A program made the position numbers and the translations under genes. This document shows positions 25,848-60,324 of a stretch of DNA of 64,000 nt, in pieces. The stretch spans positions 44,776 to 108,775 of the forward strand of contig CAVZVU010000001.1 in the NCBI GenBank assembly GCA_963778795.1, in the 5' to 3' direction. The notes below the pieces were generated by a model, which did no database searches, had not been told where the DNA came from, and saw only the letters and a list, made by a program, of their open reading frames with translations. Source of the DNA: an uncultured Pseudomonadota bacterium (GTDB lineage Bacteria; Myxococcota_A; Polyangia; Fen-1088). Numbering within the stretch: position 1 is the first letter of the stretch; each line of letters opens with the position of its first letter.

Positions 25848-26894
25848 CTACGGCTGAACTAGCTGGATTTGCCGCGTCGTCCACGACGCTCCGCCCCGTT
25901 CATCCCGTACGACGATCCAGACCGTGAGGAGGGGATTCGCCGGCATGACCTTGGGCGCGACGTAGTGCGATTCGAGGTGGACGTGATCCTGTCCGGTGTA
26001 GAGCAGCGACTGAACCGTGCTGGTCTCGACCGGCGAGAACGTGCCGGAGGTCGTGAAGAAGGCGTAGCGCAGCGTCTCGGCGGCGATGTCGGTGGTGACG
26101 ACCTGCGGCGGGTTGTCGCGCGTGAGCGTTCGCGTCGAGTACGCCTCGGCGATGGCCCCGCCCGGTTCGAACCAGAGCTCGCCGCCGAGCGGGATGCTGA
26201 TCGGGTTCCCCTCGGGCAAATCCATGGGACTGACCGGATTGGAGCTCGCGTCGCGCGACGGATAGACGGTCACCTTGGTCACCGTCGGGTTCTGATTGGG
26301 CGCCTGCGGCGGCCGATCGGGCAGCTGCTGAGAGAAGATCAGGCGCTTGGTGGCGACGATGCTCTCGGTGCCGGCGCCGAGCTCGAACTGGACGACGATC
26401 GGCAGCTGGAAGCCCTGCGCGGCAAAGGGATCGACGCTGTAGGCGAGCGCGAGCAGCGACGGCGCGGCGGCGAAATCGACCGGGATCTCGTGCACGGGCC
26501 CGGGGTCGCTGGTCGCCGCCGGCGAATCGGGAGAAATGATCTCCAGCGAGCTCGGCGTCTGACCGGGGACGTTGTGCTGGCAGACGACGCCGTTCTTGCC
26601 GGTGGCGGCGGTCACCGAGTCGATCTCGCGTGGACATGCCAGCGCGCTGTAAGAGACGGCGCGGCCGTTTCCCTCCGGATCGACGACCAGCGCCGTGATC
26701 GTGCTGGTGAAGGGGGCGGTCTGATTCGGCAGCGCCGCCGGGTCGACGTAGATCTCGGGCGGGTCGGCCTTGATGCCGAGCAACCGCAGATCGATCACCG
26801 TGCTCACGTCCTGAAAGCTGGAACAGCCCGGCAGGATCCCGAACGTCAGGCTACCGAGACCGACCAACATCATGCTTCGCGCCGAAATTCGCAT
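25848..26894 (-). CDS. lipoprotein, hypothetical (downstream partner of the TonB-dependent receptor)
   Basis: Start at ATG 26894, overlapping the TBDR stop by 1 nt (TGATG). Lipobox is LTFGILPGCSS. 348 aa with no recognisable motif. Confidence 0.6.
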   Translation of the reverse strand: MRISARSMMLVGLGSLTFGILPGCSSFQDVSTVIDLRLLGIKADPPEIYVDPAALPNQTAPFTSTITALVVDPEGNGRAVSYSALACPREIDSVTAATGKNGVVCQHNVPGQTPSSLEIISPDSPAATSDPGPVHEIPVDFAAAPSLLALAYSVDPFAAQGFQLPIVVQFELGAGTESIVATKRLIFSQQLPDRPPQAPNQNPTVTKVTVYPSRDASSNPVSPMDLPEGNPISIPLGGELWFEPGGAIAEAYSTRTLTRDNPPQVVTTDIAAETLRYAFFTTSGTFSPVETSTVQSLLYTGQDHVHLESHYVAPKVMPANPLLTVWIVVRDERGGASWTTRQIQLVQP

Positions 26895-29693
26895 CAGAAC
26901 TTTCCTCGAAGACCCAGTATCGGCAGGATGGGGATTCCGCGCACCGGCGCCGATTGCTGGTTGCGGTAGTCGTAGACCGTGAACTCCGGGTTCTGCGCGT
27001 TGTAGACGTTCTGCACGTCCAGGTACGTGCTGAAGCGCCAGGTGTCGAACGTCCAGGTCCGCTCGACGCGCAGGTCGAGCTGGTGGAAGGTCTGGCGCCG
27101 CGTCGAGCCCTCCGGGCCCAGCACCGGCCGGTAGACGTTGTAGTCGGAGTCGTAGACCGATCCGACGACCGGCGTCTGGGGGACGCCGCTGACGACGCGG
27201 AAGCGCGCGCCGAACTCCCACGCGCTGAGCTTGTAGCTGCCGATGAGGATGAAGTTGTGCGTCTGGTCGAACGGCGTCGGAAAGTAGCTGCCGGTGGTCG
27301 GCGCCGCCAGCCCCCCCATCGGTCCGCCGGGGGAGACGTTGCCGACGCTGGGGTCGGTCTGCTCCGCGCGCGACAGCGTGTACGAGATCCAGCCGAAGAA
27401 GTGGCGCGTGATCTCGTGCCGCAGCAGCAGCTCCATGCCGTAGCCGCGCCCGCGCCCGCTGTCGTTGAAGTTCGCGACCGGGTCGGCCACCGGCAGGTTG
27501 TGCCGGCGCAGGTAGTAGAACGTGGTGTCGAGCGAGATCGCCTGGGTGAGCTTCTGCTCGAAGCCGGCGTGATACTGGTCGGCCCAGATCGTCTGCAGGT
27601 TCGGGTTGCCGTACTGCTTGTCGAGCACCTGCGGCTGCTGGGGCTGGTGAAAGATGCCGGCGCCGGCCTTGAGCGCGAAGCGCGGCGTCACCGACCAGTG
27701 GGCCGACGATGCGCGGGTCGTAGGTGAAGCGATCGGTGCTGTTGTAGTGGAACCAGTCGAAGCGCAGCGCCGGGGACGATGCGCAGATCCTTGGTCGGGT
27801 CGACCAGCGCCTCGACGTAGACCGCGCTGCCGGAGTCGGCGAAGGCGCGGTCGATGTCGGTTATCGTCGGCTGGGTGCGCCCGAACGTGCGCGTCTCGGG
27901 CGGCACCGGGATGTGAAAGTGAAGATCCTCGAGGCGCAGCTGGCCGTCGAAGCCGGTCATCAGCGTCAGGTGCTGGTTGATCGGCTTGGTCAGATCTTCG
28001 CGCAGGCCGATGACCTGGGCGCCGGTGTCGACGGCGATGCTGCCGGCGTCGAACCGGTTGCTGTCGAACCCGTACGACGGCGACAGCTTCGAGATCCAGC
28101 CGTCCTTGCTGACGGTCCAGGTCGCCGACCACGCGGTGAAACCCGATGTGCGTGCCCAGATCCAGGTTGCCGCGCGCCGGGTCCGACGACAGGACGTGCA
28201 GCGTGTCGTCGCTGCCGAACACGAACAGCCCGAGCCGCCCCGCGCTGCCGAAGTCCTTGTCGACGCGCGCCTGGTAGTCCCAGTAGACCGGCGTCGCGAT
28301 CACCGTCGTCGAGCCCTGGCGCTGCGGGATCACGCAGCGGCAGCAGCTGATCGATGTACGACCGGCGCGCCGCGACGCCGCCGGTGACGCCGCCGCCCAG
28401 CGGCCCTTCGATCGAGCCGGACGAATCGAGCAGGTTGATGTCGGCGTTGCCGTGCAGCTGCGTCGCCGGCGTCGGTCTTGGTGGTGACGTCGAGGATGCC
28501 GGCGGTGGCGCGTCCGTAGTGCACGCCGAAGCCGCCCGGGTAGAAGTCGATCTTGTCGATGAGGTTGGGCGTCAGCACCGACGGCCCGCCCAGGAAGTGA
28601 TAGAGGATCGGCACGCGCTGGCCGTCGACGAAGACGCTGGAGTCCTGCGGCGCCGCGCCGCGCACCACCAGCTGGCCGAGGCCGAACGGGATGCGCGCGA
28701 CGCCGGGCAGGTTCTGGATCACGCGCAGCGGATCGCCGAAGGTGCCGGGCACGGTCGTCAGCTCGGCCTGCGACAGGGTGTGGCGCGTGACCTCCTCGCG
28801 CTGGCGCTGCGCGCGCACGTGGGTCTCGAAGCGCGCCGCCGCGCGCGTCGGCGCGTAGCAGTTCATCTGCGGCACGACGCTGCCGCCGAGCTGCATCGGC
28901 GAGAAGTCCGGATGCAGGGCTCGTGCTCGGTGTCGCTGACGATGACGCGCAGGCCGCCCGGCGCGGCGCCGCGCACCTCGAAGCGGCCGTCGTCGTCGGT
29001 GCCGGTGACCACCTCGGCGCGGGCGTTGGCGGCGGCCGGCGCGCCGATCGCGTTGCGGATGACCGCGACGTCGGCGCCGGCGATCGGATCGCGCGTCCCC
29101 TTCTCGCGCATGCGGCCGCGCACGATCACCGGCGCGGGCGGCGCGGGCGGCGCCTCGACGGCGGTGGCGCGGGCGGCGCCGGCGGGGGCGGCGCCGCGCG
29201 GCGGCGTCTCGACCACCTTGGGGACGAAGTGCACCACGTACTCGATGCGGATCTTGCCGGGCTTGCCGTCGATCTCGGCCGGCGAGAACTCCATGTCGTT
29301 GACGGCGGCGATCGCCGCCTCGTCGAACCCGTGACCGGCCGGCTTGGTGACCTGCACGCCGCTGACGTGCCCGTCGGCGTCGATGTCGATCATCATGGTC
29401 ACGTCGGCCGACAGCTTCTCGGCCAGCGCCTCGGGCGGGTAGACCGGATCGACCGCCTTGGTGATCGCCGGTGGCTTGGTCAGCTTCGGCGCGGGCGGCG
29501 GGGGCGGCGCCTCGTCGGGCTTGTCGGCGTTCGGCTGCGCGAAGTCCTGCGCCCGGGCGGGCGCCGGCCAGGCCGCGGTCGCCGCGACCACCAGAGCGAC
29601 GAGCGGGATCAGCGCGAGCGTTCTCACGTGCGAGAGCCGCGCCCGGGGCGCGCGCGTCGAGGGGGCGAATCGCAAGGTCTCATTCAATGACAT
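26894..29693 (-). pseudogene. TonB-dependent receptor with N-terminal TonB_C-like and CarboxypepD_reg-like domains (frame-disrupted as sequenced)
   Basis: Collinear pieces lie in three frames. TonB_C-like: PPAITKAVDPVYPPEALAEKLSADVTMMIDIDADGHVSGVQV...IEYVVHF. CarboxypepD_reg-like: VIVRGRMREKGTRDPIAGADVAVI...TDDDGRFEV. Plug: TVPGTFGDPLRVIQNLPGVAR...VVRGAAPQDSSVFVDGQRVP. The barrel ends ...PILPILGLRGKF. Frame changes occur near 28920, 28445, 28335, 28130, 27757 and 27700. Confidence 0.75.
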
Positions 29694-29812: not shown

Positions 29813-31088
29813 ATGAATCTGTCCGGATATCCGCTCGCGGCGCTGGCCGACAAGGTGGGCACGCCATTTTATCTGTACGACGCCCAGATCCTGCAGGAGC
29901 GTCTGGCCAAGCTGGCGGCGCTGACCGAGGGACCGGCGCTGCAAGGCACGCTACGCGATGAAGGCGAACTCATCGTGGCGCGTCCTCGAGAGCGTGCGCG
30001 CGGCCGGGCTGTGGATCGACGCCGTCAGCGGCAACGAGGTGCTGCGCGCGCGGCGCGCCGGCTTTGCCATGGGCAGCGAACCGCCGGTGGTCATGCTGAC
30101 CGTCGACGTATTTCGCGACAACGCCCTGACCACCGTGCTCGAGCACAGCATCCTGCCCAACGTCGGCTCGCCCGGCATGATCGAGGAGCTGCGCGGCTCC
30201 GGCTACCGCGGCGGCATCGCGTTCCGCGTGAACCCCGGCTTCGGCCACGGCCACGTTCAGTCGTGCGACACCGGTGGGCCGTCGTCGAAGCATGGCGTCT
30301 GGATGGACGACCTCAGCCGCGTGCGCGCGATGGCGATCGACGCCAAGCTGCCGATCGTCGCGCTGCACGCGCACATCGGCACCGGGCCGCAGATTCGCGA
30401 GTTCGACGAGAACATGCGCAAGCTGGTGTCGCTGTTCGTCGACCTGGTGCCGAGCTTCCCCGACTTGCAGGCGGTGAACCTGGGTGGCGGCATCCCGCAC
30501 CCGTACCGGCCCGGCAGCGCGGCCTACGATCTCGCGTGGTACCGCCCCGTGCTGGTCGAGGCGGCCGAGCGCCTGGCCAAGGCGGCGCGCCGGCCGATCC
30601 GCGTCGAGATCGAGCCTGGCCGCTACCCCGTCGCCGGGATGGGGATGCTGGTCGCGCGGGTCAAGGACATCAAGGAGACCGCCGCCAACGCCAAGGGCCC
30701 GGGCCACCGCTTCGTCATGGTCGACGCCGGCTTCGTCGATCTGATCCGACCGGCGATGTACGGCGCTTACCATCAGATCTCGATCGTCGGCGCCGGCGCG
30801 AACCGTCCGCCCGAGCCGCTGGTGGTCGCGGGGCCGTTGTGCGAAAGCGGGGACGTGTTCACGCGCGACGATCACGAGCTGCTCGTGCCTCGTCAGCTCG
30901 GCCGTCCCGATGTGGGGGATCTGCTGGTGCTTCATGATGCGGGGGCCTACGGGGCTGCGATGAGCTCGAATTACGTCTCCCTCGGTCGCGTGCCGCAGGT
31001 CTGGTGGGACGATGGCAGAGCTACACTCATCGCTCGTCGTGAGACGCTTGAAGACATTCAACGCACTGACTGTGACGAACCTCTCTAG
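29813..31088 (+). pseudogene. lysA: diaminopimelate decarboxylase (one frame disruption near 29945 as sequenced)
   Basis: N-terminal MNLSGYPLAALADKVGTPFYLYD is in one frame. ARYAMKANS (PLP Lys), GFGHGH and GPLCESGDVF follow in the +1 frame (ORF 29958..31088). Confidence 0.85.
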
Positions 31089-35366: not shown

Positions 35367-36407
35367 CTAGGTCGTGGCGGTCGCGCCGCGCGCGCGCCCC
35401 GGGCCGCCGCGCGCGCGCCAGAGCTTCCAGAGCTTGAGCGCGACCACCAGCAGCGCCAGTCCCCACGCCACCCAGATCACGGCGTGCCAGTAGAGAAAGA
35501 CGATCCGCCGCGTCGACCAGGGGGCCAGCAGCACCGGCAACCCGCCGCGGTGATCGAGCGAAAGGATATCCATCAGGATCGCCACCGTGCCGTGAACCAG
35601 GAACCCGGCGTAGATGCTGCGGGTCTTCATGGACAGCGACCCCAGCACCACGCCCGCGACGATCGCCGCGCACGCCTCCAGGTACGGCTTGCCGTAGTGG
35701 ATCATGCAGTAGGGGACGACCATCGACCAGATCGCGCCGACCCCGAACACGCGCGTCGCGCGGATCCACCAGCCGCGGAAGAAGATCTCCAGGCCCAGGA
35801 ACTGCGCGATGTAGATCCCTTCCCACAGCAGGAAGTCGAACCAGGATCGTCCCGCGAGCTTGTACATCGGGTAGTACGCGCCGAAGTCGGGCTGGCGTTT
35901 GATGATCAGCATCAGCGGAATCATCACCGCGACGCACAGCGCGTAGATCCAGGCGTGCTCGCGGAACCCGCGCGGGCGCAGGCCGAAGTCGAGCAGCGAG
36001 TCACGGCGAAAGAGCAGCCGCCAGACCGCGAGCGGCAGCAGGTAGCCGGCGACGCGCGTCGCCGCCCACCAGATGCGCAGGTAGGTCTCGTCGTAGGCCT
36101 GGACGTTGATGAAGCCGCCCGGGTGGCTCTTGGTCCGCTCGGTCAGCCAGGGTTGCAGGGTGTCGTGGTAAAAGTTCCAGGTGCCGTAGTATTCGTGCAG
36201 CGTGAGGATCAGCGCCGCCAGCGTCAGCGCCACCAGCGGCCGGTAGTCCATCTCGCCGCGCTCGCGCAGCGCCCGGCGGTAGATGAACGCCTCCTCGTCG
36301 AGCTCGTGCCAGGTCTTGCGAAAGAACAGCCAGATGAGCGGCGCGATCGCGAGCAGCAGCGGGAAGGGGACGATCCACTTTGTCTGCGGCAGCGCCAGCC
36401 AGCTCAT
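35367..36407 (-). CDS. CPBP-family (CAAX-type) intramembrane glutamic protease
   Basis: 346 aa, polytopic. LWEGIYIAQFLGLEIFFRGWW (EExxxR-like motif) and ...AGFLVHGTVAILMD (His motif) are present. Confidence 0.7.
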   Translation of the reverse strand: MSWLALPQTKWIVPFPLLLAIAPLIWLFFRKTWHELDEEAFIYRRALRERGEMDYRPLVALTLAALILTLHEYYGTWNFYHDTLQPWLTERTKSHPGGFINVQAYDETYLRIWWAATRVAGYLLPLAVWRLLFRRDSLLDFGLRPRGFREHAWIYALCVAVMIPLMLIIKRQPDFGAYYPMYKLAGRSWFDFLLWEGIYIAQFLGLEIFFRGWWIRATRVFGVGAIWSMVVPYCMIHYGKPYLEACAAIVAGVVLGSLSMKTRSIYAGFLVHGTVAILMDILSLDHRGGLPVLLAPWSTRRIVFLYWHAVIWVAWGLALLVVALKLWKLWRARGGPGRARGATATT

Positions 36408-36581
36408 GAATTGACGACGTGGTCTTTGGGTCGATGGGGCCGCCGCTTGCCGCTTCTCGCTTTCCGTTGTTCGCTGCCCGTTCTTGGGGCACCGTCGCGG
36501 CGGGGCCTCAATGCCATATCAGACATTCGACGATCGAGCTATCTTGCGGGCGTGCCCCACGACGGGTCGACGCCAGGGTCG

Positions 36582-38026
36582 ATGTCAGAGTCCTCCAAGT
36601 TTGGTCGGTTCATCCAGACCTACTCGGCCTTTCTGTCCAGCTTCGTCATCGGCGTCGCCGGACTGATCGCCACGTCGATCTGGCAGTACCGCCAGTCGCA
36701 GATCGCGGTCGAGCAGGCCCGGTCGGAACAGGCGGCGGCGCGCGCCAAGGCCGACAGCGACTGGCGCATCGCCCGCGCCGAGATCCTGGGCAAGAACCTG
36801 AACGTGCTGTCGGCGCAGGGGGCCGGGACCGCCGACCAGCGCTTCGGCGTGCTGCTGTCGCTGACCCGCGGCAACATCATCGACCCCGAGCTGGCGGTGT
36901 CGTACGCGCTGGAGCTGGGACGCGACAACGCCGAACTACATGCGCAGCGTTCTGGCCAGCACCGCCGACAAGAACTACGGCCAGCTGGCGCAGGCGTTCA
37001 AGCTGACCTGCCTGCAGCGCTTCGGCGTCGCGCGCGCCGCCGAGATCTGCAAGGACGACAAGCTCGCCGATCGCTCGGATGCCATCGCCCAGCTGTTCGA
37101 GGACGAGCTCGACGCCGCCGTCGGCGTGGGCGACGTCGCGCACGGGCCGCTGTCGCTGCTGCGCGAGGAGCGCTGGGTCCAGGGGGCGCCCGGCAAGATG
37201 TCCTGGCTGTTCGAGCCCTACCTCCAGGATTTGTACGAGCGGCGCCAGTGGAAGGAGATCGAGCGTTTCGAGTCGGCGTCGGTGGGCGCGCGACTGGTGG
37301 CGGCGCTGGTGCTGGCGACCGCGCGCACCGGCGAGCTGGTGAGCGCCAGCGAGGCGGCGCAGGTCGAGGCCTTTCACACCCAGCGCCGCAAGTGGCTGGT
37401 CTCGTACCTGGTGGGCGGGACCTGCGACGCCGATTGCCGCGGGCGGCTGGTGGACGTGATGCTGAGCTCGTACGGCGAGGCGCAGGGCGACTACGACGAC
37501 GCCCTCAAGCGGCTGATCCTGCAGCCGCGCGGCGAGGCGGGGCCGACGCTGGCGCATCTGCACGCGCGGCTGCTCTGGTGTCAGGTCGACGCCGATGATC
37601 TGGCGGAGTTCCGCGATCGGGTGCTGGTGCCGGCGGTCATGCAGGCGCTGGCGCAGCCGGATGCCGTCAAGCCGCCAGAAAAGACCGGCGACAAGGCGGC
37701 GGCCAAGGCAGCCGAAAAGGCGGCTGACAAGGCGGCCGACAAGACGGCGATCCTCGATGATCTGGTCGCGTTGACGGCGCTGGTGCCCGATCCGACGGAG
37801 CCGAAGGCGCTGGCGGCCTGGAGGTCGTTGATGGCCGCGCTGGCTACGCCGCGCGCCGGGCAGCGCCGGCAAGGTGGGCTCGGGCGCCGATCGTTACCAG
37901 CGCGCGTTCGTCGGGCGACGCGCCTCGGCGGCGCGCGAGCGGCAGAATCCGCCGCCCATGATCAAGAAGGTCAGCTTCTGCAACGCCGCCGAGGCGTCGG
38001 CGAGCGCCCCCACCCTGGATCAGTAA
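36582..38026 (+). pseudogene. membrane-anchored hypothetical protein (two frame disruptions as sequenced)
   Basis: MSESSKFGRFIQTYSAFLSSFVIGVAGLIATSIWQY (TM) is in the first frame. The frame shifts +1 near 36935 (ORF 36940.. frame) and +1 again near 37855. GC3 clearly favours the frame ending ...MIKKVSFCNAAEASASAPTLDQ-TAA at 38024-38026. Confidence 0.5.
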
Positions 38027-38118: not shown

Positions 38119-39491
38119 ATGAGCGACCAACCCGACAATCCCGCCGCGACGCCGTCCGGCGAGCCGGCGCCGGGCCGGACCCTGCTCGACATGAATGGCT
38201 ACCAGTGGACGGTGCTGTTCGCCGCCTGGCTCGGCTGGGGCTTCGACGTCTTCGACGGGCTGCTGTTCAACTACGTCGCGCCCAACTGCGTGCCGACGCT
38301 GCTGCACCTGCCGCTCGGGTCGCCCGAGGCGGCCAAGGCGACCCTGCACTGGAACGGGATCCTGTCGTCGATCCTGCTGCTCGGCTGGGCGGCCGGCGGC
38401 ATCCTGTTCGGACAGATCGCCGATCGGGTGGGGCGCACGCGGACGCTGATGTTGACGATGCTGCTGTACGCGGTCGGCACGTCGCTGTGCGCGGTCGCCC
38501 CCAACCTGGGGTCGCTGATCGCGTTCCGCGTGCTCGCCAGCCTGGGCATCGGCGGCGAATGGGCGGCGGGCGCCGCCATGGTCGCCGAGGTCGTCCCCGA
38601 CAAGCGCCGCGTCGAGGCCGGCGCGCTGCTGTACACCTCGGCGCCGGCCGGCCTGTTCCTGGCGACGTTCGCGAACTACCAGATCGCCGGGCGCCTGCTT
38701 CAAGGACAGCCCCGAGACCTCCTGGCGCTACGTCTTTCTGTGCGGATTGATCCCGGCGGTGGTCGCGTTCGCCGTGCGCTTCTTCGTGCACGAGCCCGAA
38801 CGCTGGAAGCAGGCGGCGCGCGACAGCGCCACCGCCACAGCTGCGCGAGCTGTTCCTTCCCGGCACGCGCAAACTGACCCGCAGCGGGGTCTCGATGGCG
38901 CTGATCGCGCTCATCACCTGGTGGAGCTGCAACGTCTTCATCCCGATCGTGTCGACCGGCCTCGCGCGCGCGTCGGCGCACGCGGGCGGGTTCGATCGCG
39001 CCGCCACGCTGGCGCTGGTCGAGAGCTGGAAGTCGACGGCGACCAACATGTTCAACTGGGGCGGCCTGATCGGGACGCTGCTGACCATCCCCGCGGCCAA
39101 GCTGCTCGGGCGTCGCACGATGTTCGGCATCTACTACCTCGGCTCGGGCCTGGCGGTGCTGGCCACGTTCGGCCTCGACCTGGCACCCGAGGTGCGGCTG
39201 CGGATGTACTTCCTGATCGGCCTCACTGTGTTCGGCGTCTTCGGCAGCTTCACCTACTACCTGCCCGAGCTGTTCCCGACCCGCCTGCGCGGCACCGGCG
39301 CCGGCTTCTGCTACAACGTCGGCCGCGTCATCGCCGCGGGCGGTCCGTTCCTGGTCGGCACCATCGCCGCGCAGGGCGCGAACTCACTGACCAGCGCGCT
39401 GCGCGCGCTGTTCTACGTCGGGTTCGTCCCGCTGCTGGGGTTGCTGCTGTTGCCCTGGGTGATCGAGACCAAGGGCAAACAGATCGCCTGA
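38119..39491 (+). pseudogene. MFS transporter (two frame disruptions near 38695 and 38835 as sequenced)
   Basis: Three collinear ORF pieces: 38119.., 38747.., 38895... Motifs seen: GWGFDVFDGLLFNYV, GQIADRVGRTRTLM (the MFS D-R-x-G-R motif) and ...ELFPTRLRGTGAGFCYNVGRVIAAGGP. Confidence 0.75.
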
Positions 39492-41179: not shown

Positions 41180-41184
41180 GCGCC

Positions 41185-42240
<1,056 letters not shown>

Positions 42241-43498: not shown

Positions 43499-44317
43499 TC
43501 ATTTCGTCTTCTCGGGCTCTCGCCGTTTGCGCAGCAGGACCAGCGTCGCGCCGTCGCCGCCCTGCGCCGGTCCGGCGTGCGTGAACGCCAGGATCGCGCG
43601 CGCCACGCGCCCCGCCGTCAGCACGCGCTGCACCGCCTCGCCCAGCACCGGCCCCGCGTCGCCCGAGTTGAGGCCGCGACCATGGATGACCAGCACGCAG
43701 CGCCGGGCGAGCGGCGAGCGACTGCATCGACGAAGCGCTCGAGCGCGCCCACCGCCTCGTCGCGCGAGTGCCCGTGCAGGTCGAGGCGCGCCTCGATCGG
43801 GTAGTCGCCGTCGCGCAGGCGGCGCGCCAGCCGGCGATCGACCTCGGGCGCGCGCTCCGTCCCGCGCCCGCCGCCCGCGCCGCCGCGGTCGTTCCCGCTC
43901 ACCAGCTCGGCCAGCTCGGCGTCGGCGTCGGCGTCGTCGTTGCGCAGCGGCCGCGCGGCGGCGCGGCGGCGCGGCCGGCGGCGCCGCGCCCAGCGGTGAC
44001 GCGCGCCGTCCCCGCTCGGCTTCGGTCAGCGGTTTCACGCCGCGCATCGCCTGCTCGAAGAAGCGGTCGTCATCCGCCGAGCCCGGCGTTGTAGCGGGCG
44101 CCTGCGCCGCCGCTGATTTGGCGGCCGGGGCCGGCGCCTTGGGCGCCTTCGTCACCTTGGGATCGTCGAGCGTCTTCGCGGGTGTCTTCGCGGCGAGCGT
44201 CTTCGCGGGCGTCTTGCCGGCGGTCTTGCCGGCATTGGGCGCGACCGCCGGCTTCGGCGCGACCGGCTTCAGGCCACGGAACGGCGTGTTGAAGCCCGGC
44301 GATTCCTTCTTGCCCAT
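43499..44317 (-). pseudogene. Smr (small MutS-related) domain protein (at least 2 frame disruptions as sequenced)
   Basis: MGKKESPGFNTPFRGLKP... with a Lys/Ala/Pro-rich N-terminus. The Smr core LDLHGHSRDEAVGALERFV ... VLVIHGRGLNSG...VLGEAV is split between frames near 43990 and 43705. Confidence 0.7.
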
Positions 44318-44409: not shown

Positions 44410-45905
44410 TCAGCCGGCGAGCCGGGCTCCGGCGGGGCGGTTCGTGGCGCTGGCGGCGGCGATGATCGGCGCCGGGATCTCCCCCTCGAGCACGAAGCCG
44501 CGCGCGATCCGACGCATGACGGTGACGCTCACGGTCGGGCGCTGGGGCAGCTGATCGAAGACCAGCGTCAACGACTGGCCGACCTCGAACGCCTCGCTGC
44601 ATTCGATGGCGACGCTCGCGGCCGAGATGTCGAAGACGCGCACGGCGGCGACGACGCTGTCGTTGCGCAGCGTCGCCAGCCAGTCGACCGGGTAGCGCTG
44701 GTGCTTGCGGGCGTAGCGCTCGAGGTCGACGTTGAGATCGGCCGAGATCTCGTCGGCCGGCGGCGCCGCTGCGGCCGTGGCGTCCGCGGGGGTGGCCGCC
44801 AGGGGCTGCTCCGCCGACCGACGCCGGGACCGACGGGACCGGCGGGGCCGACGGCGCTGGCGGCGTCATGCTGGTGGCCGGGTGCCGGGGCGCGGGGGTC
44901 AGCTCCAGCGCCGCGCGCGTTGGTCGCCGGGCCGGCTTTTGCCTTGTCATCGTTTTCGCCCTCGTCCTCCTCGATGAGCAGCTCGTCGAACGGCACGTCC
45001 TCGAGCAGCAGCATCTCGGCCATCTGGCGAAACACCTTGGTGTTCTCGTCGATCTGATTGCCGAGCAGCATCGGGCGCCGCTGGTTGATCGACTCACGGA
45101 TGCGCCGGCTGATGCCGACGTAGCCGAGGATCGGCACGCTGATGCCGAGGAAGTCGTGGATCATGCGCGACACCGCGTGGAAGATGCCCGCCTGGTTGGG
45201 TTCGGTGACCTGGTTGCCGACGATCTGCGCGCCGAATCGCGCGAGGATCCGGAACACCGACTCGCCGAACTCCGGGTTCTCCTCGCGCAGCCGCGCCAGC
45301 AGGCGGCTGACCTTCTCGTTCTCCTTGCTGGCGATCGCCGGCTCCAGCAGCTCGAGCTCGGAGGTCTTCTCGGCGGCGTGGCGCAGCGTGCGCAGCACGG
45401 CGCCCTTGAGGAACGAATAGGCGGTCTGGATCGACGTCACCTGCGGCGTCACCACCAGCAGGCGCTGCGATCCGAGCTCGAAGAAATCGAGCACGTTGAA
45501 GCTGACACCGGCGCCGACATCGACGATCACCACGTCGGCGTCGAGCGAACGGATGCGCTTCATGATCCGCTGCTTCTCGCCGTGGGTGATGTTGGCGGCG
45601 CCGACCGCCGCGCCGGTGCCGGCGACCAGGTGTAGGTTCGGCAGCGCCGTCGGTGTCAGCGCCTCTTCCAGGGTTTCGATCTTGCGATCGATCAGCGCCT
45701 GCAGCCCGGCGACCGGCCGGTCGATGCCGAACAGCACGTGCTGGTTGGCGGCGCCGAGGTCGCAGTCGACCAGAACGACGCGTGAGCCGTTCTGGGCCAT
45801 GGCAGCAGCGAGGTTCGAAGAGACGATGCTCTTGCCGACACCCCCCTTACCACCCCCGACCGTGATGATCCGTTTCGTCGTGTTCGAAGGCGTAGGAGAT
45901 TTCAA
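44410..45905 (-). pseudogene. MinD/ParA-family ATPase fused to a C-terminal PilZ-like domain (at least 1 frame disruption as sequenced)
   Basis: TTG start behind GGAGGGG. The deviant Walker A GGGKGGVGKS is present, with VLVDCDLGAANQ. After an acidic/low-complexity linker, the frame changes near 44800. The tail then reads ...ARKHQRYPVDW...VRVFDISAASVAIECSEAFEVGQ (RxxxR ... DxSxx[G/S]). Confidence 0.65.
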
Positions 45906-45980
45906 TAGCCCCTCCGCCGGTCTGTCGTCAGAAACCTGACGAAGCTTTAACGCCGCGCGCGCTCTACCACAGCGAGTTTT

Positions 45981-46473: not shown

Positions 46474-47459
46474 CTACCGGTGAAACCCGTTGTCGTGGTG
46501 CTCGTGCTTGTCGTGGTGCGGCGGCGGCGCCGCGCGCGGAGGTTGTGCCGGTGCCGGTGCGGGGCGCCAGCCGCCGCCCTGGGGTGCGGCGGCGCCGGTG
46601 CCGGGCGCCAGCCGCCACCACGCGGCGGCTCCTGCGCGGGCGGCCCGCCCCGCCAGCCGCGATCTTCGTGCTCGTGCTTGTACCACCCGTTGTGGCGACC
46701 GTTGTCGTGGTGCTCGTGCTCGTAGCGCTCGTGCTCGTAGCGGCGGTCCTCCACGATGACCGGCGGCGGCCCACCGACGACGACCGGCGGCCCGCCGACC
46801 GAACCCGACGCCGATGCCGACCTGGACCTGCGGCGGCGGCGGCACCCCGATGGTCACGCCGGCCGACACCACCGGCGGCCCCCGACCGACCGCCTGCCCG
46901 CGCGGGTACCCGGGCCCGACGACGATCTCGCCGTGAAAGCTCGGCGGCGCGACGGTGACGTCGACGATCGGACGGGTGTAGACGATCGGCTGGTAGGCCT
47001 CGTTGACCGTCACGTAGCGCGGCCGCTCCTGGTAGTAGACCGGCTCGTAGTTGCCGACGTACCAGTAGGCGCCGCCGCGAAACTCGAACTGCGCCTGGCC
47101 GCGGCGCCGGCTGATACCAGTGGTAGTGCGGCCCGTTCAGGTAGCAGTAGATCGGCTGGCCGAGCTGAACGTCGGCCTCGACGACCGGGTGCGGGCCATA
47201 GAACGAGTAGCGCGGCCCTTCATAGTCGAAGGGCGCCGGGTCGCCGACGAAGTAGTACTCACCGCCGACCTCGCGGTAGAGGCGCGGATCGGACGGACCG
47301 AAGTCGTGCACGTGGGGGACATTGATGTAGCAGAAGCCGTGGCCGATCTTGCGCGGCAGCGGGTGCTGGGAACGGTAGCGCACGGCGTGGGCCTCGCGCG
47401 GTGGCCGCGATGCCGACCAGGGCGACGACGCCCACCAGAGCAGCGACGAAACTTCGCAT
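46474..47459 (-). pseudogene. secreted His/Pro/Gly-rich repeat protein (about 4 frame disruptions as sequenced)
   Basis: ATG 47459 follows AAGGAGAA. Signal peptide is MRSFVAALVGVVALVGIAATA. The middle reads GFCYINVPHVHDFGP...YCYLNGPHYHWYQP. The tail carries repeats YEHERYEHEHHDNGRHNGWYKHEHEDRGW, P[RQ]GGGWRPAPAP x2 and HHDKHEHHDNGFHR. Shifts fall near 47395, 47115, 46800 and 46600. Confidence 0.5.
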
Positions 47460-47618: not shown

Positions 47619-48700
47619 TCACCACTTGGCGTTGCGCGCCATCTCCAGCGCCTTCTCCGGCCACCAGGCGCCTGCCGTCGGTCCCTTGTTGCAGGTCCCG
47701 TCGGATTCGCCGGGCGGCTTGATCCAGTAGAAGGCGTCGACCAGCGGATCGCCGGTCTCGGTCGTCGGCGGGTGGCCGAGCGCGCGCCCGTCGGGGTTGC
47801 ACCAGGCGCGCTCGTCGTCGCCCTTGAACGGCGGCGGACCGTTGCCGTTGCGGCTGGTGTCGATGATGAAGTGCTTGCCGCCCAGCAGCGCCGACAGCTC
47901 GTGGCCGTACTTGATGAGATCGGGCGTCGACTGGTAGTTCGAGACGTTCAGCGCGAACCCGTCGGCCTTGTCGATCCCGGCCGCCTTCAGGCGCTCCGCC
48001 ATCTCGGGCGCTTCGATCCAGGCCGAGTGTCCCGCGTCGACGTAGACCGCGGCGCCCGGCAGCGCGGCCAGCTTTTCGATCGCGTACTTCACCAGATCGA
48101 TCCGCTGCTGCTGCTGCTCCGCCGTCAGGCACTTCTTCAGCAGCGGCAGGCCGTCGGGCTCGAGCACGACCACCGCGCGGCGCGATCCGATCCCGGCGGC
48201 CAGCCCGTCGATCCAGACGCGGTAGCGCTCGGGCGTGCGCGACCCACCCGCCGAGTAGCTGCCGCAGTCGCGGAAGGGGAGGTTGTACGCCACCATGACC
48301 GGCAGCCCGCCCGCGCGCGTCTTGCTCCAGACGTACTTCTTGGTGTCGGACTCGATCTGCGGATTCCAGTTCCCGAGCCAGGCCGCCGACGGCTGCCCGG
48401 CGATCTTGTCCATCGCCGCCGCGTCCGCCGGCCGCGAGCTGCGCCACGCGTCGGCGGTGAGCCGCGCCTTCGATTCTTCGTCGATCGACCCAGTAGGCGT
48501 CACGAAATGGATTCTCGCCGGGCTGCGCGATCCGACGTCATCGACGCTCGGTGCTGCCCCGCGACCCCCGAGCCGGGGATCGAGCGCGGCGCCGGTGGGA
48601 TCACACATCCGGCGAGGAGGGTGAGGGGAAGAAAGGATCCAAAAGAGCCCACGATCAAGCCAGTTGAGCGACAACGATTCACCTCGGCGAAGTTATTCAC
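47619..48700 (-). pseudogene. glycoside hydrolase family 6 (cellulase) lipoprotein (2 frame disruptions near 48520 and 48492 as sequenced)
   Basis: GH6 motifs present: YNLPFRDCGSYSAGG, VVLEPDGL, YVDAGHSAW, NVSNYQ, WIKPPGESDG. The N-terminal lipobox LPLTLLAGC and ENPFRDAYW are in other frames. The start (GTG 48700 or 48682) is uncertain. Confidence 0.8.
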
Positions 48701-48747
48701 GGCGGTAGCGATCCCCGCCCCCCGTTTGGCCCAACCTTTCTTGCCTG

Positions 48748-50201: not shown

Positions 50202-50910
50202 ATGACGCGCGTCTTGGTCGTCGAGGACGAGCGCGATCTCCAGGAGGTTGTCGGTTACAATCTCCGCGAGCTCGGCTACGACGTTGTTGTGTCCGATCGC
50301 GGCGCCCCGGTGGCCGCGATCGCGGCCGAACAACGCCCCGACCTGGTGATCCTCGATCTGATGCTGCCCGACATCTCGGGGCTCGAGGTGTGCCGCATCC
50401 TGAAGAGCAACCCCGCGACGCGCGCGATTCCCGTGGTGATGGTCACGGCCAAGGGGGCCGAGGTCGATCGCGTCGTCGGCTTCGAGCTCGGCGCCGACGA
50501 CTACGTCGTCAAGCCTTTCAGCGTGCGCGAGCTGCTGCTGCGCATCCAGGCCGTGCTGCGCCGTTCGCAGACCGGCCCCAACGTGGTGGCGCCGACGCCC
50601 ACCATCAGCTTCGGCCGCCTGCACATCGATCGCGAGGCGCCCGAACGTGCTGGTCGACGACCGCGAGGTGGCCCTCACGGCGCTGGAGCTGCGCCTGCTG
50701 TGCACGCTGTACGAGCGGCGAAATCGGGTGCAGTCGCGCGCGGTGCTGCTGGACGACGTCTGGTCGGTCAGCGGCGAGAACGCCACTCGCACCGTCGACA
50801 CCCACGTCAAGCGACTGCGCGAGAAGCTGGGGCCGGCCGGCGCGTACATCGAGACGATCCGCGGGATCGGCTATCGCTTCGTCGGCGCCCCACCGAAGCA
50901 GACGCCGTGA
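50202..50910 (+). pseudogene. OmpR/PhoB-family response regulator (one frame disruption near 50640 as sequenced)
   Basis: Receiver domain: RVLVVEDERDL...DLVILDLMLPDISG...VVMVTAKG. The winged helix LTALELRLLCTLYE...TVDTHVKRLREKL...IETIRGIGYRF lies in the +1 frame. Confidence 0.85.
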
Positions 50911-52754
50911 AGTTCGGGGTGCGCGCGAAGATCTTCGCCGTATCGCTGAGCCTGATCGTCCTGTCGGTGTTGACGGGCGAGATTTATTTGCGCCACCGGG
51001 TCGAGGCGAACCTCGTCGAGCGGATCCGCCAGGACCTGACCGAGCGTCTCGAGCTGGTGCGCGATGCCAGCGACCAGACGCTGCGCGGGGCCTCGCTCGG
51101 CGGTACGGCGGAGCAGGACGCCGCCGCGAAGGATCAGTGGAACGACCTGGCGCATCGCCTGGCCCGCTCGGGCCGGCAGCGCCTCACCTTCATCCGCCCC
51201 GACGGCGTCGTGCTCGGCGATTCCAGACGTCGACCGCGCCGGCGCTCGAGCACATGGAGAACCACGGCGACCGACCCGAGGTGCGCAGCGTGCTCGACGG
51301 CGGCGAGTCCGGCGCCAGCATGCGCTGGAGCGCGACGCTGGGCCGGCGCTTGATGTACGTCGCCGATGCCGATCGACGCGGGACGGGCGGACGGTCGCTG
51401 ATCGCGCGGCTCGCGGTGCCGCTGACCGAGGTCGACGACGCCGTCGAGGGGCTGCGGCAGATCTTCGGCTTCGGCGGGCTGGTCGCGCTGGGCGTCGCGC
51501 TGTTGCTGTCGTTCGGCGCGGCGCACATCATGTCGCGCTCGCTGCGCGAGCTGACGATGGCGGCGCAGCGCATGTCGTCGGGTGACCTCGACGTGCGCAC
51601 CCACCTGCGCGGTCGCGACGAGGTGGCCGACCTCGGCAAGGCGCTCGACGCGCTGGCGGAGAGCCTGTCGGCCAACCTCAGCACGATGCGCGCCGAGCGC
51701 GATCTCCTGGGCCGCATCCTCGAGTCGATGCAGGAGGGGGTGCTGGTGATGGACGCGGAGCGCCGGATCCTGCTGGTCAACCCGTCGCTGCGCGAGATGC
51801 TGGCGCTGTCGAGCGAGACGGTCGGGCGGATCGCCATCGAGGTCATCCGCAACGCGGAGCTGCAGCGGCTGCTCGAGACGGCGCTGTCGTCCGAAGGCTC
51901 GCACTCGGGCGAGATCGAGATCGTCGGCCTCAAGCCGCGCCGCGCGCTGGTGCACGCCAAGGCGATGTCGGGGCAGCCGGGCCTGCTGGCGGTCTTCGTC
52001 GACGTCACCGACGTGCGCCGGCTGGAGTCGTTGCGCCGCGACTTCGTCGCCAACGTCTCGCACGAGCTGCGCACGCCGATCGCCGCCGTGGCGTCGGCGG
52101 CCGAGACGCTGCGCCGGTCGGCGCTGAAAGATCCCGAGGCATCGGTGCGCTTCGTCGAGATGATCGAGCGCAACGCGCGCCGCCTGCACGAGCTGGTCGA
52201 GGACGTGCTCGATCTGTCGCGCATCGAATCGAAGGAGTTCAAGCCGCGCGCCGACGCGGTCGACGTCGGCCCGATCGCGCACCAGGTGATCGGGAACTTC
52301 CGCGAGCGCATCGAGCAGAAGCGCCTGTCGGTGACCGCGGCGGTCGCGCCGGGGACGGCGTCGGCGATCGCCGATCACCGCGCGGTCGAGCAGGTGCTGA
52401 CCAACCTGGTCGAGAACGCCGTGAAGTACTGCCCCGAGGGGGCGTCGATCGTCGTGCGCGTCTCGGACGAGGGCAGCCAAGGTCCGCATCGCCGTCGAGG
52501 ACTCGGGCCCGGGCATCGAGGCGAAGCACCTGCCGCGCCTGTTCGAGCGCTTCTACCGCGTCGACGCCGGTCGCACGCGCGACATGGGCGGCACCGGCCT
52601 CGGCCTGTCGATCGTCAAGCACCTGGTCGAGGCGATGGGCGGGATGATCGGCGTGCAGAGCGTGATCGGTCGCGGGTCGACCTTCTGGTTCACGCTGCCG
52701 CGCGACGCGCGCGTCACCGCCGCCGCGCCGCCGTCGCAGCCCCACGTCAACTGA
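50907..52754 (+). pseudogene. PhoR-like sensor histidine kinase (TM-HAMP-PAS-HisKA-HATPase; 2 frame disruptions near 51225 and 52480 as sequenced)
   Basis: GTGA overlap with the regulator stop. Motifs seen: HAMP (SRSLRELTMAAQRMSSGDLD), H-box FVANVSHELRTPI, N-box [11 protein letters not shown], and [28 protein letters not shown] in the last frame. Confidence 0.85.
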
Positions 52755-52878: not shown

Positions 52879-54585
<1,707 letters not shown>

Positions 54586-54622
54586 GCCGCCAACTTACGC
54601 GAAGGCTCGTTTCCACGACGCA

Positions 54623-54646
54623 AATTCGCGGTCGAGATCGCGAATT
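54623..54646. promoter_or_regulatory. perfect inverted repeat AATTCGCG-N8-CGCGAATT (candidate activator UAS / autoregulatory site)
   Basis: Read directly. It lies about 150 bp upstream of the -24 element and about 40 bp upstream of the activator gene's own start. Confidence 0.4.
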
Positions 54647-54794
54647 CTCGTGGCGCCCGCCGGGTCGGCAACCGCGGCTTGGTCGCCGGCGATATCTGTT
54701 CGAAACCGGGCGCGCGGGCGTCTCGAAACGTGTCAGTTTTCAATCCGCGGTTTCATCGGTCGATCTCGGCCGGGCGCGCGTCCCGGCGTGCCGT

Positions 54795-55383: not shown

Positions 55384-56388
55384 GTGACGGCGACTCGAAA
55401 GGTGCGCGCGGCGGCGGTGCAGATGGCGCCGGTGCTGGGCAGCCGCGCGGCGACGACCGAGAAGGTCTGCGCCGCGATCGAGTCGGCCGCGCGCGAGGGG
55501 GCGGAGCTGGTGGTCTTCCCCGAGACCGTCGTGCCTTACTACCCCTACTTCTCGTTCATCCAGCCGGCGGCGGCGATGGGCAAGGAGCACCTGCGCCTGT
55601 ACGAGGAGGCGGTGACGGTGCCCGGGCCGACCACGCACGCCGTCGCCGAGGTGGCGCGCACGACCGGGCGCGGTGGTCGTGCTGGGCGTCAACGAGCGCG
55701 ACCACGGCACGATCTACAACGCGCAGCTGATCTTCGACGGTGACGGCGCGGCTGGTGCTGCACCGGCGCAAGATCACGCCCACCTATCACGAGCGGATGG
55801 TCTGGGGGCAGGGCGACGGCGCCGGGCTGCGCGCGGTCGATACGCGCGTCGGGCCGCGTCGGCGCGCTTGCCTGCTGGGAGCACTACAACCCGCTGGCGC
55901 GCTACGCGCTGATGGCCGATCACGAGGAGATCCACGCCGCCATGTTTCCCGGCTCGCTGGTCGGCCCGATCTTCGCCGAGCAGATCGAGGTCACCATCCG
56001 CCACCACGCGCTGGAATCGGGCTGCTTCGTCGTCAACGCCACCGGCTGGCTGACGCCCGAGCAGCGCGCCGAGGTCGCGGGAACGACCGGGCTCGAGCGG
56101 GCGGTCAGCGGCGGCTGCTTCACGGCGATCGTGTCGCCCGAGGGGACGCTGCTCGGCCAGCCGATCACCGAAGGGGAGGGGACGCTGTACGCCGATCTCG
56201 ACCTGGCGCTGGTCACCAAGCGCAAGCGGATGATGGACAGCGTCGGCCACTACAGCCGGCCGGAGCTGCTGAGCCTGCTGATTGATCGCACGCCGACCAG
56301 CGTGCTGGTCGAGCGGACATCGACCAGCGTGCCGCGCGAGCGCGCGGGCCTCGCGTTCGCGGCGAATGTGCCGGCGGCGCCTCGATGA
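55384..56388 (+). pseudogene. Nit1C-type (Nit6803-family) nitrilase (3 frame disruptions near 55665, 55748 and 55858 as sequenced)
   Basis: The catalytic E-K-C triad context is found collinearly across frames: [53 protein letters not shown]. The C-terminal part is in ORF 55912..56388. All three shifts are +1. Confidence 0.88.
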
Positions 56389-56470
56389 CAGCGGAATCGA
56401 TCAGGCCGACGGCGACGCCGACGGCGGAAACTTCGGCGCCGGCGGGCGTTGCTTGAAGGGACAGCCAGGA

Positions 56471-57639
56471 ATGTCGACGTCAATCTCTCGCCCTCGCCGA
56501 AGAACGACAGGCGTTGATGGCCGATTTGCAGGCAGCCGGGCTCTCCGTCGAGAGCGACGGCGCCGCCGCGACGGCGCCCGTCGGCCGTCGCGGCGGCGCG
56601 GGGCCGTCGGACCACCGCGCGGTGTCGCTGGACGGCGCCACCGTGATGGTGCCGATGCGCGCCGCCGGCCAGTCCCCCTTCCGCCTCCGCGTCCTCTCCG
56701 CCCCGTCCTCGTCCTCGTCCGCGTCCCCGTCGCCCGTCGCGCGCCTGGATCCTCCGTGGCGACGATCTGCTCGCCGAGGTGGAGCTGCCGCCGTCGGCCC
56801 GCTTCTACGCGCTGTCGACCGCCGACGGGATCCCGTACTCGAAGATCGCGCTGCTGCACGCGCGCCGGGTGCTGGCGTCGACGGTGTTGCAGTCGTGCGT
56901 CCGCTACGCCGATCGCGGCGCTCGCCTGCCGCTTCTGCGCCATCGGGACCTCGCTGAAGGAAGGGCGCACGCTGGCGCGCAAGACGCCCGGCGCAGCTGG
57001 CCGAGGTCGCGGCGGCGGCGGTGCGTCTCGACGGTGTCGAGCAGCTGGTGCTGACCACCGGGACGCCCGCGTCGGCTGATCGGGGTGCTGCCCACCTGGC
57101 GGCGTGCGCCGCCGCGGTCAAGGCGACGACCCCCGGCGCTGCCGATCCAGGTGCAGTGCGAGCCGCCCGACGACTTCGGCTGGTTCGCGCGCCTGCGCGC
57201 CGCGGGCGCCGACGCGCTGGGCATGCACCTGGAGGCGGTCGAGCCGGCGGTGCGCGCGGCGGTCATGCCCGGGCAAGGCCGAGGTTCCGGTCGAACGCTA
57301 CTTCGACGCCTTCACGGCGGCGGTGGCGGTCTTCGGCCGCGGTCAGGTGAGCACGTACCTGATCGCCGGTCTCGGCGATCGCCCCGCGAGCCTGCTGGCC
57401 ATGGCCGAGCGTCTGGTGTCGATCGGGGTCTATCCGTTCGTCGTCCCGTTCGCGCCGATCGCCGGCACGCCGATGGCGGGCCACGCGCCGCCGCCGAGCG
57501 ACAGCATGCGCAGCCTGTACACCGAGGTCGCGCGCCTGCTGCGGCAGCACGGCCTGTCGTCGGCCGAGATGAAGGCGGGCTGCGCCAAGTGTGGCGCCTG
57601 CTCGGCGCTGTCGACCTACGAGGGGGCCCGCTGTGCTGA
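56471..57639 (+). pseudogene. MSMEG_0568-family radical SAM protein (NitD-like; about 7 frame disruptions as sequenced)
   Basis: Collinear pieces: [75 protein letters not shown] (Cys cluster), [74 protein letters not shown]. Start and end are tentative. Confidence 0.75.
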
Positions 57640-58233
57640 CGTCGACGTCGACGTCGACGTCGACGCCGGCGGGTGCGGCGCCGGGTCAGTCCCGCTTCGA
57701 GACCCGCGTCGCGCGCACGGCGCACGAGCGCGCCGCCTACTTCGCCCTGCGGCGCGAGATCTTCTGCGACGAGCAGGGGGTGTTCGACGGCGACGATCGC
57801 GACGACTGCGACGCGGCGGCGATCCCGATCGTCTGCCTGGCCGAGACACCCGACGGCGGCGCCGCGCGCGTCGTCGGCGTGGTCCGGATCTGGGAAGACG
57901 AATCGACGCCGGGCGACTGGTGGGGCGGCCGCCTCGGCGTCGATCGCGACTTCCGCACCGTGGGCGCCGTGGGGCGCTGGCTGGTGCAGACCGCCGTCGG
58001 CACGGCGCGCGGTTGGGGGGCGTCCCGATTTCGCGCCACCGTGCAACGCGCGAACGTCGCGTTCTTTCGCCGGCTGCGCTGGCAGACGCGCGACCGAGCT
58101 CGAGCTCTTTGGACGGCCGCACCACTTGATGGAGGCCGACCTTACTCACTATCCACCGACCGGCGAGGCGCGTCCCGTAGCTGGGGGGCTATCGGGGCGC
58201 GCCTCGCGCGGAGCTTGCGACGATGCTGCCTGA
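57633..58233 (+). pseudogene. MSMEG_0567/Sll0786-family GNAT N-acetyltransferase (NitE-like; one frame disruption near 58085 as sequenced)
   Basis: GTG 57633 overlaps the putative radical-SAM stop (GTGCTGA). Motifs seen: YFALRREIFCDEQGVF, VVGVVRIWEDE...WWGGRLGVDRDFR and ...RFRATVQRANVAFFRRLRW, then ELFGRPHHLMEADL in the +1 frame. Confidence 0.75.
57638..57667 (+). repeat. (GACGTC)4-5 hexamer tandem repeat at the radical SAM / GNAT junction
   Basis: gacgtc x4 perfect plus gacgcc. It reads (ST)n in the GNAT frame and (DV)n in the alternative frame. Confidence 0.9.
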
Positions 58234-59259
58234 GCTGGTGCGCGAGCTGCAATCGGCGCTGGGCGTGCAGCACAAGCGCGATATCCAGACGGCGGCGCGC
58301 CTGCTGCCGCGCGTGCGCGGCGGCCCGTGGGGCGCCGCCGAGGTGCGGGTCGGCGACGACACCGCGGCGATCCCCGACGGGGACGGATACTTGCTGTTCG
58401 CGGCCGAGGGGATGTGGCCCGAGCTGGTCGCCAGCGAGCCGCGCTTCGCCGGCTACTGCGCGGTGATGGTGAACGCCAGCGACGTCTACGCGATGGGCGG
58501 TCGCCCGCTGGCGATCGTCGACGCGCTCTTCGCCGCCGGCGCCGAAGCCGCCGAGCCGATCTTGCAAGGGATGGCCGACGCCTCCGAGCGCTTCCAGATC
58601 CCGATCGTGGGTGGCCACACCAACCTGCACAGCCCCTACCCGGCGCTGGCGGCGGCCGTGCTGGGGCGGGCGCGGCGGTTGCTGACCAGCTTCGACGCGC
58701 GCCCCGGCGACGAGCTGGTGGTCGCCGTCGATCTGCGCGGGCGCATGCACCCGCGGCACGCGTTCTGGAACGCCAGCACCGACGCCGCGCCGGCGCGGCT
58801 GCGCGCCGACTACGCGCTGCTGCCCCGCCTGGCCGAAGAGGGAGACGGGATGGTGGTGGCCGCCAAGGACATCAGCATGGGCGGGCATCGCCGGCACCGC
58901 GCTGATGCTGTGCGAGGCGTCGGGTGTCGGCGCGACGCTGCGGCTCGACGCGATCCCGCGCCCCGACGGCGTCCCGTGGGCGACCTGGTTGCAGGCCTTT
59001 CCCAGCTACGGCTTCCTGCTGGCCACGCCGACCGGGCGACGGCGCGCGGCTGTGCGAGCTGTTCGCGTCGCGCGAGATCGCTGCCGCCGTCGTCGGTCGC
59101 GTCGACGGCAGCCGCCGCCTGACGCTGGCCAGCGGCGATGCGCGCGCCGAGCTCTGGGATCTCGCCCGGGCGCCGCTCACCGGCTTCGGACCGGACGCGG
59201 ACGCGTCACGGGCGCCGGAACCGCCAAGAGGGAGCGGGAGAGGGCGAGGACGCGCGTGA
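58223..59259 (+). pseudogene. sll0787-family AIR-synthase-like (PurM-fold) protein (NitF-like; 2 frame disruptions near 58885 and 59040 as sequenced)
   Basis: [60 protein letters not shown] and then [18 protein letters not shown] in +1 frames give a PurM/ThiL-like architecture. Confidence 0.75.
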
Positions 59260-60324
59260 CCACCTCCGGCATCCTGCCCGGCGGCCGGGCGAGCGCCGGC
59301 CTCGTCGAGCTGTCGAGCGACGCCGTCGGCTCCGGTGCCGGTGCCAGCGCCGCCGCGGGCGCGGGCGCGCATCGTCGCGTCGAGGCGCCGCCCGAAGTGG
59401 CGCGCCGGATCCGGCTCGGGATGCCCCACCTCGACGCGGGCGGCCTGTCGGAGAACTGGCTGTTTCGCGACGCCGGCGATCGCCACTGGGAGGCGATCGC
59501 GCGCCGGCTCGGCGTCGCCACCGACCAGATCCGCAGCGAGACCGGCGAACGGCTCTACCCGACGGTGGTGGCGGTGCGCGCCGCGCTACGACACCCCGCT
59601 GGCCGCGGTGCGCGAGAACGATCTGTTCGAGGCGATCGCCGAGGTGGTGCCGTGCGGGCGCGCCTGCGCGCACGGGCGCGTCGTCGCGGCGGTCGGCCCC
59701 CAGCGCAGCCGCTTCGCGCTCGAGCTGCTGACCACCTTCGCCGCGCCCGCCCCGGCGGGCGGAGGGCTGCGCATGGCGATGCCGGAGCCGCGCCTGGCGC
59801 GCCGCTGGATCCCGGTCGGTGGCGAGCCGCCGATCGCGACGCTGGCGCGCGCTGCCCGTCGCGGTGAGCCGCTCGGCGATCCGTTCAGCGGGCCGGCGAT
59901 GGCGCTCACCGGTCCGCCGCTGGCGGAGCTCGACTACGAGCCCTCGCCGTACGCCGACTACAACGGCGCCGGCCTGCTCTACTTCGCTTCGTACGTCACC
60001 ATCGCCGATTCGGCGGAGCGCCGGCTGGTGCGCCAACTGCGGCTCGACGGCAGCCGGCGGGCGCGGGCGCCGGTCGCGGCGCGTGACTGGGCGCTCATGA
60101 CCTCGGCGGTGCGCCGCGACGTCTTCTACTACGACAACCTGCCGCTCGGTGCCTCGCTGACGGCGGCACTGCTCGCCTTCGACGAGGATTGCCACGGCGT
60201 CACCACGCGCATCCGCCTGAGCCGCGCCGACGCGCAGCAGTCGGGACAGCGGCCGGCGCGCGCCATGGCCGATGTCGTCACCCGCCGGCTGTTCGTCGCC
60301 GAGCGAAGCGGAGCCCGCGCATGA
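59256..60324 (+). pseudogene. NitG-like hypothetical (Pnap_2097-family, probably hotdog-fold; one frame disruption near 59585 as sequenced)
   Basis: GTGA overlap with the upstream stop. IRLGMPHLDAGGLSENWLFRDAGDRHWEAI is present and, in the second half, YADYNGAGLLYFASYVTIADSAER. The low-complexity N-terminus makes the true start uncertain. Confidence 0.55.

Follow-up and report, generated by a model that had tools for sequence, protein, structure and literature searches.

The 64,000-nucleotide stretch of DNA analysed here, hereafter the window, spans positions 44776-108775 of contig C1 in the genome of an uncultured Polyangia myxobacterium (G000; an 8.53-Mb assembly in 7 contigs with 69% guanine plus cytosine (GC)), and positions given below are those of the window unless a contig is named. 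Between 26.9 and 60.3 kb the window carries 17 genes whose reading frames are broken and resumed, and among those affected are gap, lysA, the gene of a TonB-dependent receptor and the whole of the Nit1C cluster together with its sigma-54 activator (Table 1). A sequence-only reading of this DNA had described about 50 such disruptions in 17 named genes, almost every one a hop in the +1 direction where the codon phase was tracked, and had ascribed them to assembly error in preference to pseudogenisation.

Because the high GC content fills lists of open reading frames (ORFs) with long spurious frames, we placed the breaks by homology and codon statistics rather than by ORF length. Syntenic DNA was taken from four congeneric genomes, two of them fragmented, short-read-type assemblies (G002, 750 contigs; G003, 250 contigs) and two assembled, like G000 itself, into long contigs (G001, 6 contigs; G004, 9 contigs), and orthologous proteins from G003 or G002 were aligned to the window with a protein-against-DNA dynamic programme that allows changes of frame. 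This frameshift-aware alignment, of the kind that the sequence-only reading had recommended, returned 51-60 breaks in exactly the 17 genes it had named, all but about four of them of the +1 type, i.e. one extra base. The segments between breaks retain 67-93% amino-acid identity to the orthologues. That they contain no stop codons, as had been claimed, is true of most segments, the only two in-segment stops lying at 36414 in a hypothetical gene and at 56456 in the radical SAM gene, both in weakly aligned N-terminal stretches.

As an independent check, the DNA was scanned with a reference-free codon model, whose log-odds table was trained on 636 long ORFs of G000 and which was applied to all contigs as a seven-state Viterbi decoding (hidden-Markov; noncoding plus six frames). 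Same-strand frame switches not within 45 nucleotides of the stop of the upstream frame were kept as candidates; the model merges close pairs and picks up about 70% of the events placed by homology. It puts 40 such switches into the region from 26.9 to 60.3 kb, most of them a few bases from the protein-based positions, and none into syntenic metagenome contigs of the short-read kind from the same genus, 28.8 kb of which served as a control. The breaks do fall within the limits previously drawn for the disrupted region, but they do not fill these 33 kb continuously: they form a string of five patches of 2-10 kb each (roughly 27-30, 36-39, 41-44, 46-48 and 50-60 kb), each set apart from the next by clean DNA. 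This patchwork accounts for the clean genes interleaved with broken ones, which had been recognised correctly: CPBP and GH6 copy 2 align to their orthologues without a break, as does a glycosyltransferase gene just beyond the last patch (60327-61568), and the sulfatase is a single ORF of 512 amino acids. The flanks had also been called clean, which holds without exception after 60.3 kb and, upstream of 26.8 kb, apart from one ambiguous candidate at 23644. The latter is of the -1 type, lies 118 nucleotides before the stop of the ORF at 22838-23764, adjoining the ORF at 23833-25335, and probably means that the model changed frame too early where one gene gives way to the next.

At the DNA level, five-genome alignments of gap (A1), the sigma-54 activator gene (A2) and the nitrilase and radical SAM genes (A3), 4.8 kb in total, were parsed for isolated one-base gaps within well-aligned columns. 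They reveal 22 private or near-private one-base insertions in G000 and not a single deletion. One-base insertions are found in the same genes of the other two long-contig assemblies (seven in G001 and six in G004), at sites that are their own and mostly different, and the sigma-54 activator gene, with 8-9 insertions in G000, has none in G001. No one-base insertion occurs in the coding DNA of G002, the indels of G003 are confined to intergenic DNA, and in all four genes both short-read assemblies lack the extra bases of G000 where the sites are covered. We further retrieved four metagenome contigs from JGI by a pattern search at the gap site 42177, all from congeners of 85-92% identity; three of them (L028, L030 and L031) span the whole of gap and lack all six extra bases, the fourth (L029) begins at 41319 and is without the five extra bases in its range, and L028 and L030 also lack both extra bases of the MFS transporter gene. 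The bases inserted in G000 (11 C, 6 G, 3 T and 2 A) are close to base composition; 13 of the 22 insertions create no homopolymer, six make a run of two and three a run of three, with none longer, and inspection by eye revealed no common motif around the 22 sites. The one extra base of gap that had been resolved earlier, and reported as an A, is in fact a G on the coding strand, that is a C at plus-strand position 42177 (TGCGTGTA[C]GAGGGC).

The genes beneath the insertions remain under constraint. Once the frame of G000 was restored, by dropping the columns absent from G003 before reading, gap extends over 361 codons and the sigma-54 activator gene over 595, both without a stop. Between G000 and G003 the ratio of nonsynonymous to synonymous substitution rates (dN/dS) amounts to 0.19 in gap and 0.36 in the activator gene, as compared with 0.16 and 0.25, respectively, between the two short-read genomes, the small excess in the activator gene being expected from local misalignment around the insertions. 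Purifying selection is intact in both genes after frame restoration, and a density of 6-10 independent insertions per kb without nonsense codons, deletions or relaxed constraint is unlike gene decay.

The phenomenon extends well beyond the window. Applied to the whole of G000, the codon model yields 3,744 candidate switches away from stops (0.44 per kb). Of these, 3,146 (84%) are of the +1 type; the other 598 are of the -1 type, though some represent two close +1 events. The switches are clumped, with a variance-to-mean ratio of 7.1 per 10-kb bin, 207 empty bins out of 849, and 78 clean gaps of more than 20 kb where 0.55 would be expected. A two-state Poisson model separates clean DNA with 0.09 switches per kb from dirty DNA with 1.9 per kb, the dirty state covering about 18% of the genome in patches of 3 kb at the median and 39 kb at the maximum, and the clean stretches having a median length of 12 kb. 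Break density increases steadily, 4-5x in all, with local GC content: DNA of 60-63% GC has 0.16 breaks per coding kb and DNA of at least 74% GC has 0.82, a trend part of which could reflect higher detection power at high GC. Marker completeness amounts to 78.6% in G000, 78% in G001 and 67% in G004 for the long-contig assemblies and to 91% in G002, 96% in G003 and 87-100% in short-read assemblies of the wider family; an assembly that is contiguous and yet scores low on completeness is what frameshifts in marker genes should produce. The breaks reach genes for class-I aminoacyl-tRNA synthetases (Pfam tRNA-synt_1), one of which (C5:1481054-1482687) passes through three frames via two +1 steps inside the catalytic domain, while a second (C5:1065994-1067965) is also split between frames. 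The rpoB and rpoC genes are intact (open frames of 1,415 and 1,419 amino acids) and lie in clean DNA, and are uninformative either way.

Taken as a whole, we are highly confident in reading the breaks as single-base insertion errors left uncorrected when the consensus of this metagenome assembly with its long contigs was made, and not as gene decay, because they are almost all insertions, lie outside homopolymers, are patchy genome-wide, are denser in GC-rich DNA and are absent from the short-read relatives where these cover the sites, and because the genes that carry them are still constrained. The preference of the sequence-only reading for assembly error is thereby upheld, with one of its arguments weakened: gap does carry six extra bases, but the inference from an essential gene loses force in the presence of a second gap paralogue at C1:1622010-1622708 (about 70% identical DNA). 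Such errors could have arisen if the assembly was built on noisy long reads prone to insertions, most of which were put right by read depth or with short reads; correction would have failed in few-kb patches with poor support, owing to low coverage or to GC-related dropout of short reads; equivalently, accurate short-read contigs may have been bridged by uncorrected long-read sequence. Low-coverage long-read patches, as proposed earlier, are a plausible cause; gap filling with long reads, or a failure of polishing with short reads, would likewise agree with the GC dependence. No association with homopolymers, which is typical of the residual errors of nanopore and HiFi reads and by which a long-read artefact might be recognised, was found among the 22 insertions; this speaks against the homopolymer mechanism that is usual for such artefacts, but not against an artefact as such.

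Several observations weigh against this interpretation. All reference sequences are congeners, 80-92% identical; a pattern peculiar to the species and taking in two of the insertion sites of gap had no match in the metagenome collection, and a shorter pattern matched only congeners, at 85-92% identity. Moreover, four of the 22 insertion columns are common to G000 and G001 or G004 (41296, 41460 and 41547 in gap, alignment A1, and 57128 in the radical SAM gene, alignment A3), against about 0.06 expected by chance, and purely random read errors do not predict them. The shared columns are unlikely to reflect descent, since one of them (A1 column 158) has differing inserted bases, C versus G, and one is common to G000 and the more distant G004 but skips the closer G001; they suggest instead that systematic errors recur at particular sites or that reads were cross-recruited among congeners living together, either of which would explain them.

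The same excess of shared columns lends itself to another account, in which co-occurring strains or congeners were piled together into a chimeric consensus and extra bases arose where they differ, an artefact of heterogeneity rather than of low coverage or failed polishing. Three of the four columns lie in gap, the most conserved gene examined, in which cross-mapping would be easiest. We nevertheless regard this as very unlikely, given that the remaining 18 insertions are private, that the activator gene so densely hit in G000 is untouched in G001, and that a dependence on GC is not predicted. If insertion positions common to two congeners were instead read as descent, and the extra bases taken as they stand in the deposited sequence, the window would record a genuine, recent and clustered pseudogenisation, with 17 genes lost here and thousands more genome-wide; the second gap paralogue is compatible with this, as loss of the window copy need not kill. 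Real pseudogenes, however, would show deletions, insertions and nonsense mutations mixed, together with relaxed constraint, and here 22 insertions face no deletion, even though bacterial gene decay is reportedly deletion-biased (as attributed to Mira, Ochman and Moran, 2001). Frame-restored gap and activator genes are free of premature stops and evolve like those of intact relatives, the roughly 3,700 breaks placed by the model include a class-I aminoacyl-tRNA synthetase gene, breaks are limited to the three long-contig assemblies and absent from the short-read coding DNA that covers their sites, and the shared columns misfit descent on the two counts given above, all of which renders pseudogenisation extremely improbable.

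It might also be supposed that the genes are expressed as they stand, the extra bases being bypassed by +1 ribosomal frameshifting or by slippage during transcription. Such recoding draws its sole support from the near-uniform +1 direction and is vanishingly improbable when set against 22 contexts without a common motif, slippery sequence or homopolymer, up to ten sites in one gene, and the absence of the sites from the short-read relatives covering them. Barely credible, too, is a scenario in which the extra bases are real, this lineage and two congeners either tolerating thousands of +1 insertions via an unknown form of genome-wide correction or recoding or undergoing an insertion-biased mutational burst.

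Indel-induced gene fragmentation in long-read assemblies is said to have been pointed out by Watson and Warr in 2019 (Nat Biotechnol 37:124). It has likewise been treated by Kastor (PMC12007338) and by Sereika et al. 2022 (PMC9262707). The situation in G000 resembles these cases in that conserved genes are split, marker completeness is lowered despite long contigs and short-read relatives are intact, and in that the cure is polishing or reference-guided correction. Residual long-read errors are mainly homopolymer-linked, and those of nanopore sequencing are mostly deletions (PMC12007338). The present errors are unlike these, being nearly all insertions, outside homopolymers, and gathered in GC-rich patches of a few kb. 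We take such an insertion-only, non-homopolymer profile to be closer to the raw error of PacBio continuous long reads (CLR) or to unpolished gap-fill sequence. With the pseudogene decay of reduced or host-restricted bacterial genomes, that of Mycobacterium leprae among them, the window shares many frameshifted genes with recognisable orthologues. Real decay brings deletions, stops and relaxed dN/dS, and is not limited to assemblies of one technology; in contrast to decay of the M. leprae type, none of these three marks was seen in the genes tested here.

Table 1. Genes with frame breaks and clean flanks of the window, with break positions from frameshift-aware alignment unless another source is given.
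Feature	Position	Strand	Frame breaks and observations
Clean flank	1..26800		Codon model: one ambiguous switch (23644), no other away from a stop
TonB-dependent receptor	26897..29643	-	Five solid +1 near 27704, 27768, 28126, 28334, 28470; one -1 near 28909; codon-model switches 27700, 27769, 28114, 28333, 28462, 28909; 75% identity to G003 orthologue, no stops
TonB-dependent receptor, Pro-rich N-terminal part	29157-29601	-	Up to three doubtful events
lysA (diaminopimelate decarboxylase)	29813..31085	+	One +1 near 29945; codon model 29941; 90% identity to G003
Hypothetical protein (orthologue of a 507-amino-acid protein of G003)	36316..38023	+	Extra bases near 36933, 37855; 36566 doubtful (2-3 total); alignment and codon model
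MFS transporter	38140..39488	+	Extra bases 38691 (G), 38831 (A); alignment, codon model and DNA-level placement against L028/L030
gap (GAPDH)	41188..42240	-	Six extra bases, plus-strand 41296/7, 41443, 41460, 41547/8, 41593/4, 42177
Smr-domain protein	43520..44317	-	One +1 near 43950-43980, one -1 near 43712-43720; alignment and codon model; placement approximate because alignment identity is only 67%
ParA-PilZ protein	44413..45950	-	1-2 breaks near 44797-44924 in a low-complexity linker, frames -3 then -2; seen by homology, no call from the codon model
His-rich secreted protein	46477..47459	-	Extra bases near 46797, 47098, 47396; 46582 doubtful (3-4 total); codon-model switches 46801, 47116, 47395; 80% identity to G002 orthologue
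GH6 copy 1	47622..48724	-	Two extra bases near 48486, 48523; homology alignment
PhoB-like response regulator	50202..50907	+	One extra base near 50640; alignment and codon model
PhoR-like histidine kinase	50919..52739	+	Extra bases near 51225, 51238, 52475; alignment and codon model
GAF-sigma-54 activator	52888..54665	-	Extra bases 53086, 53255, 53376, 54060, 54084, 54140, 54369, 54518 and about 53177
GAF-sigma-54 activator	54586	-	Doubtful -1; gene total 9-10 events
Nit1C nitrilase	55390..56379	+	Extra bases 55666, 55749, 55854; protein and DNA alignment, codon model
Radical SAM protein	56433..57634	+	Extra bases about 56757, then 56914, 56987, 57128, 57271; protein and DNA alignment, codon model
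GNAT acetyltransferase	57636..58230	+	Single extra base near 58095; alignment and codon model, the latter with a further switch at 57673
AIR-synthase-like protein	58220..59204	+	Extra bases near 58883, 59034 (2-3 total); alignment and codon model
NitG-like protein	59331..60312	+	One extra base near 59583; pair 60056/60078 doubtful (1-3 total); alignment and codon model
Clean flank	60327..64000		Codon model: no switch after 60.3 kb; glycosyltransferase unbroken

Beyond the breaks themselves, the comparison with relatives brought out several features of the locus. The AAA+ core of the sigma-54 activator (53240-53900) has more than 100 paralogous matches, of 70-78% identity, in each genome of the genus, such numbers being typical of the expansion of enhancer-binding proteins in myxobacteria. 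A (GACGTC)n hexamer tract at the junction of the radical SAM and GNAT genes (57640-57670) occurs in none of the four relatives, whose sequence at that place is unrelated to that of G000 (A3 columns 2358-2385). At about 32431-32445, G002 has some 10.5 kb of extra DNA (C58:14593-25135), and between the ParA-PilZ and GH6 genes G003 has a 645-amino-acid protein and several other genes that replace the His-rich protein; these differences of G002 and G003 are variable islands in otherwise conserved synteny.

With the breaks read as errors of the consensus, the 17 genes, including those of the Nit1C cluster, are most likely intact in the living organism, and no biological novelty attaches to the frame breaks, which are an assembly artefact. 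The consequence is practical, not biological, and gene calls from G000 need frame correction. Automated annotation will fragment or drop about one-fifth of the genes of G000, and likewise those of at least two sister long-contig assemblies, so that pseudogene counts, pathway-completeness calls, protein-family clustering and findings of 'novel short ORFs' are unreliable inside the dirty patches. In other analyses of G000 and its sister long-contig assemblies frame correction is to be kept in mind, the dirty patches leaning towards GC-rich DNA.

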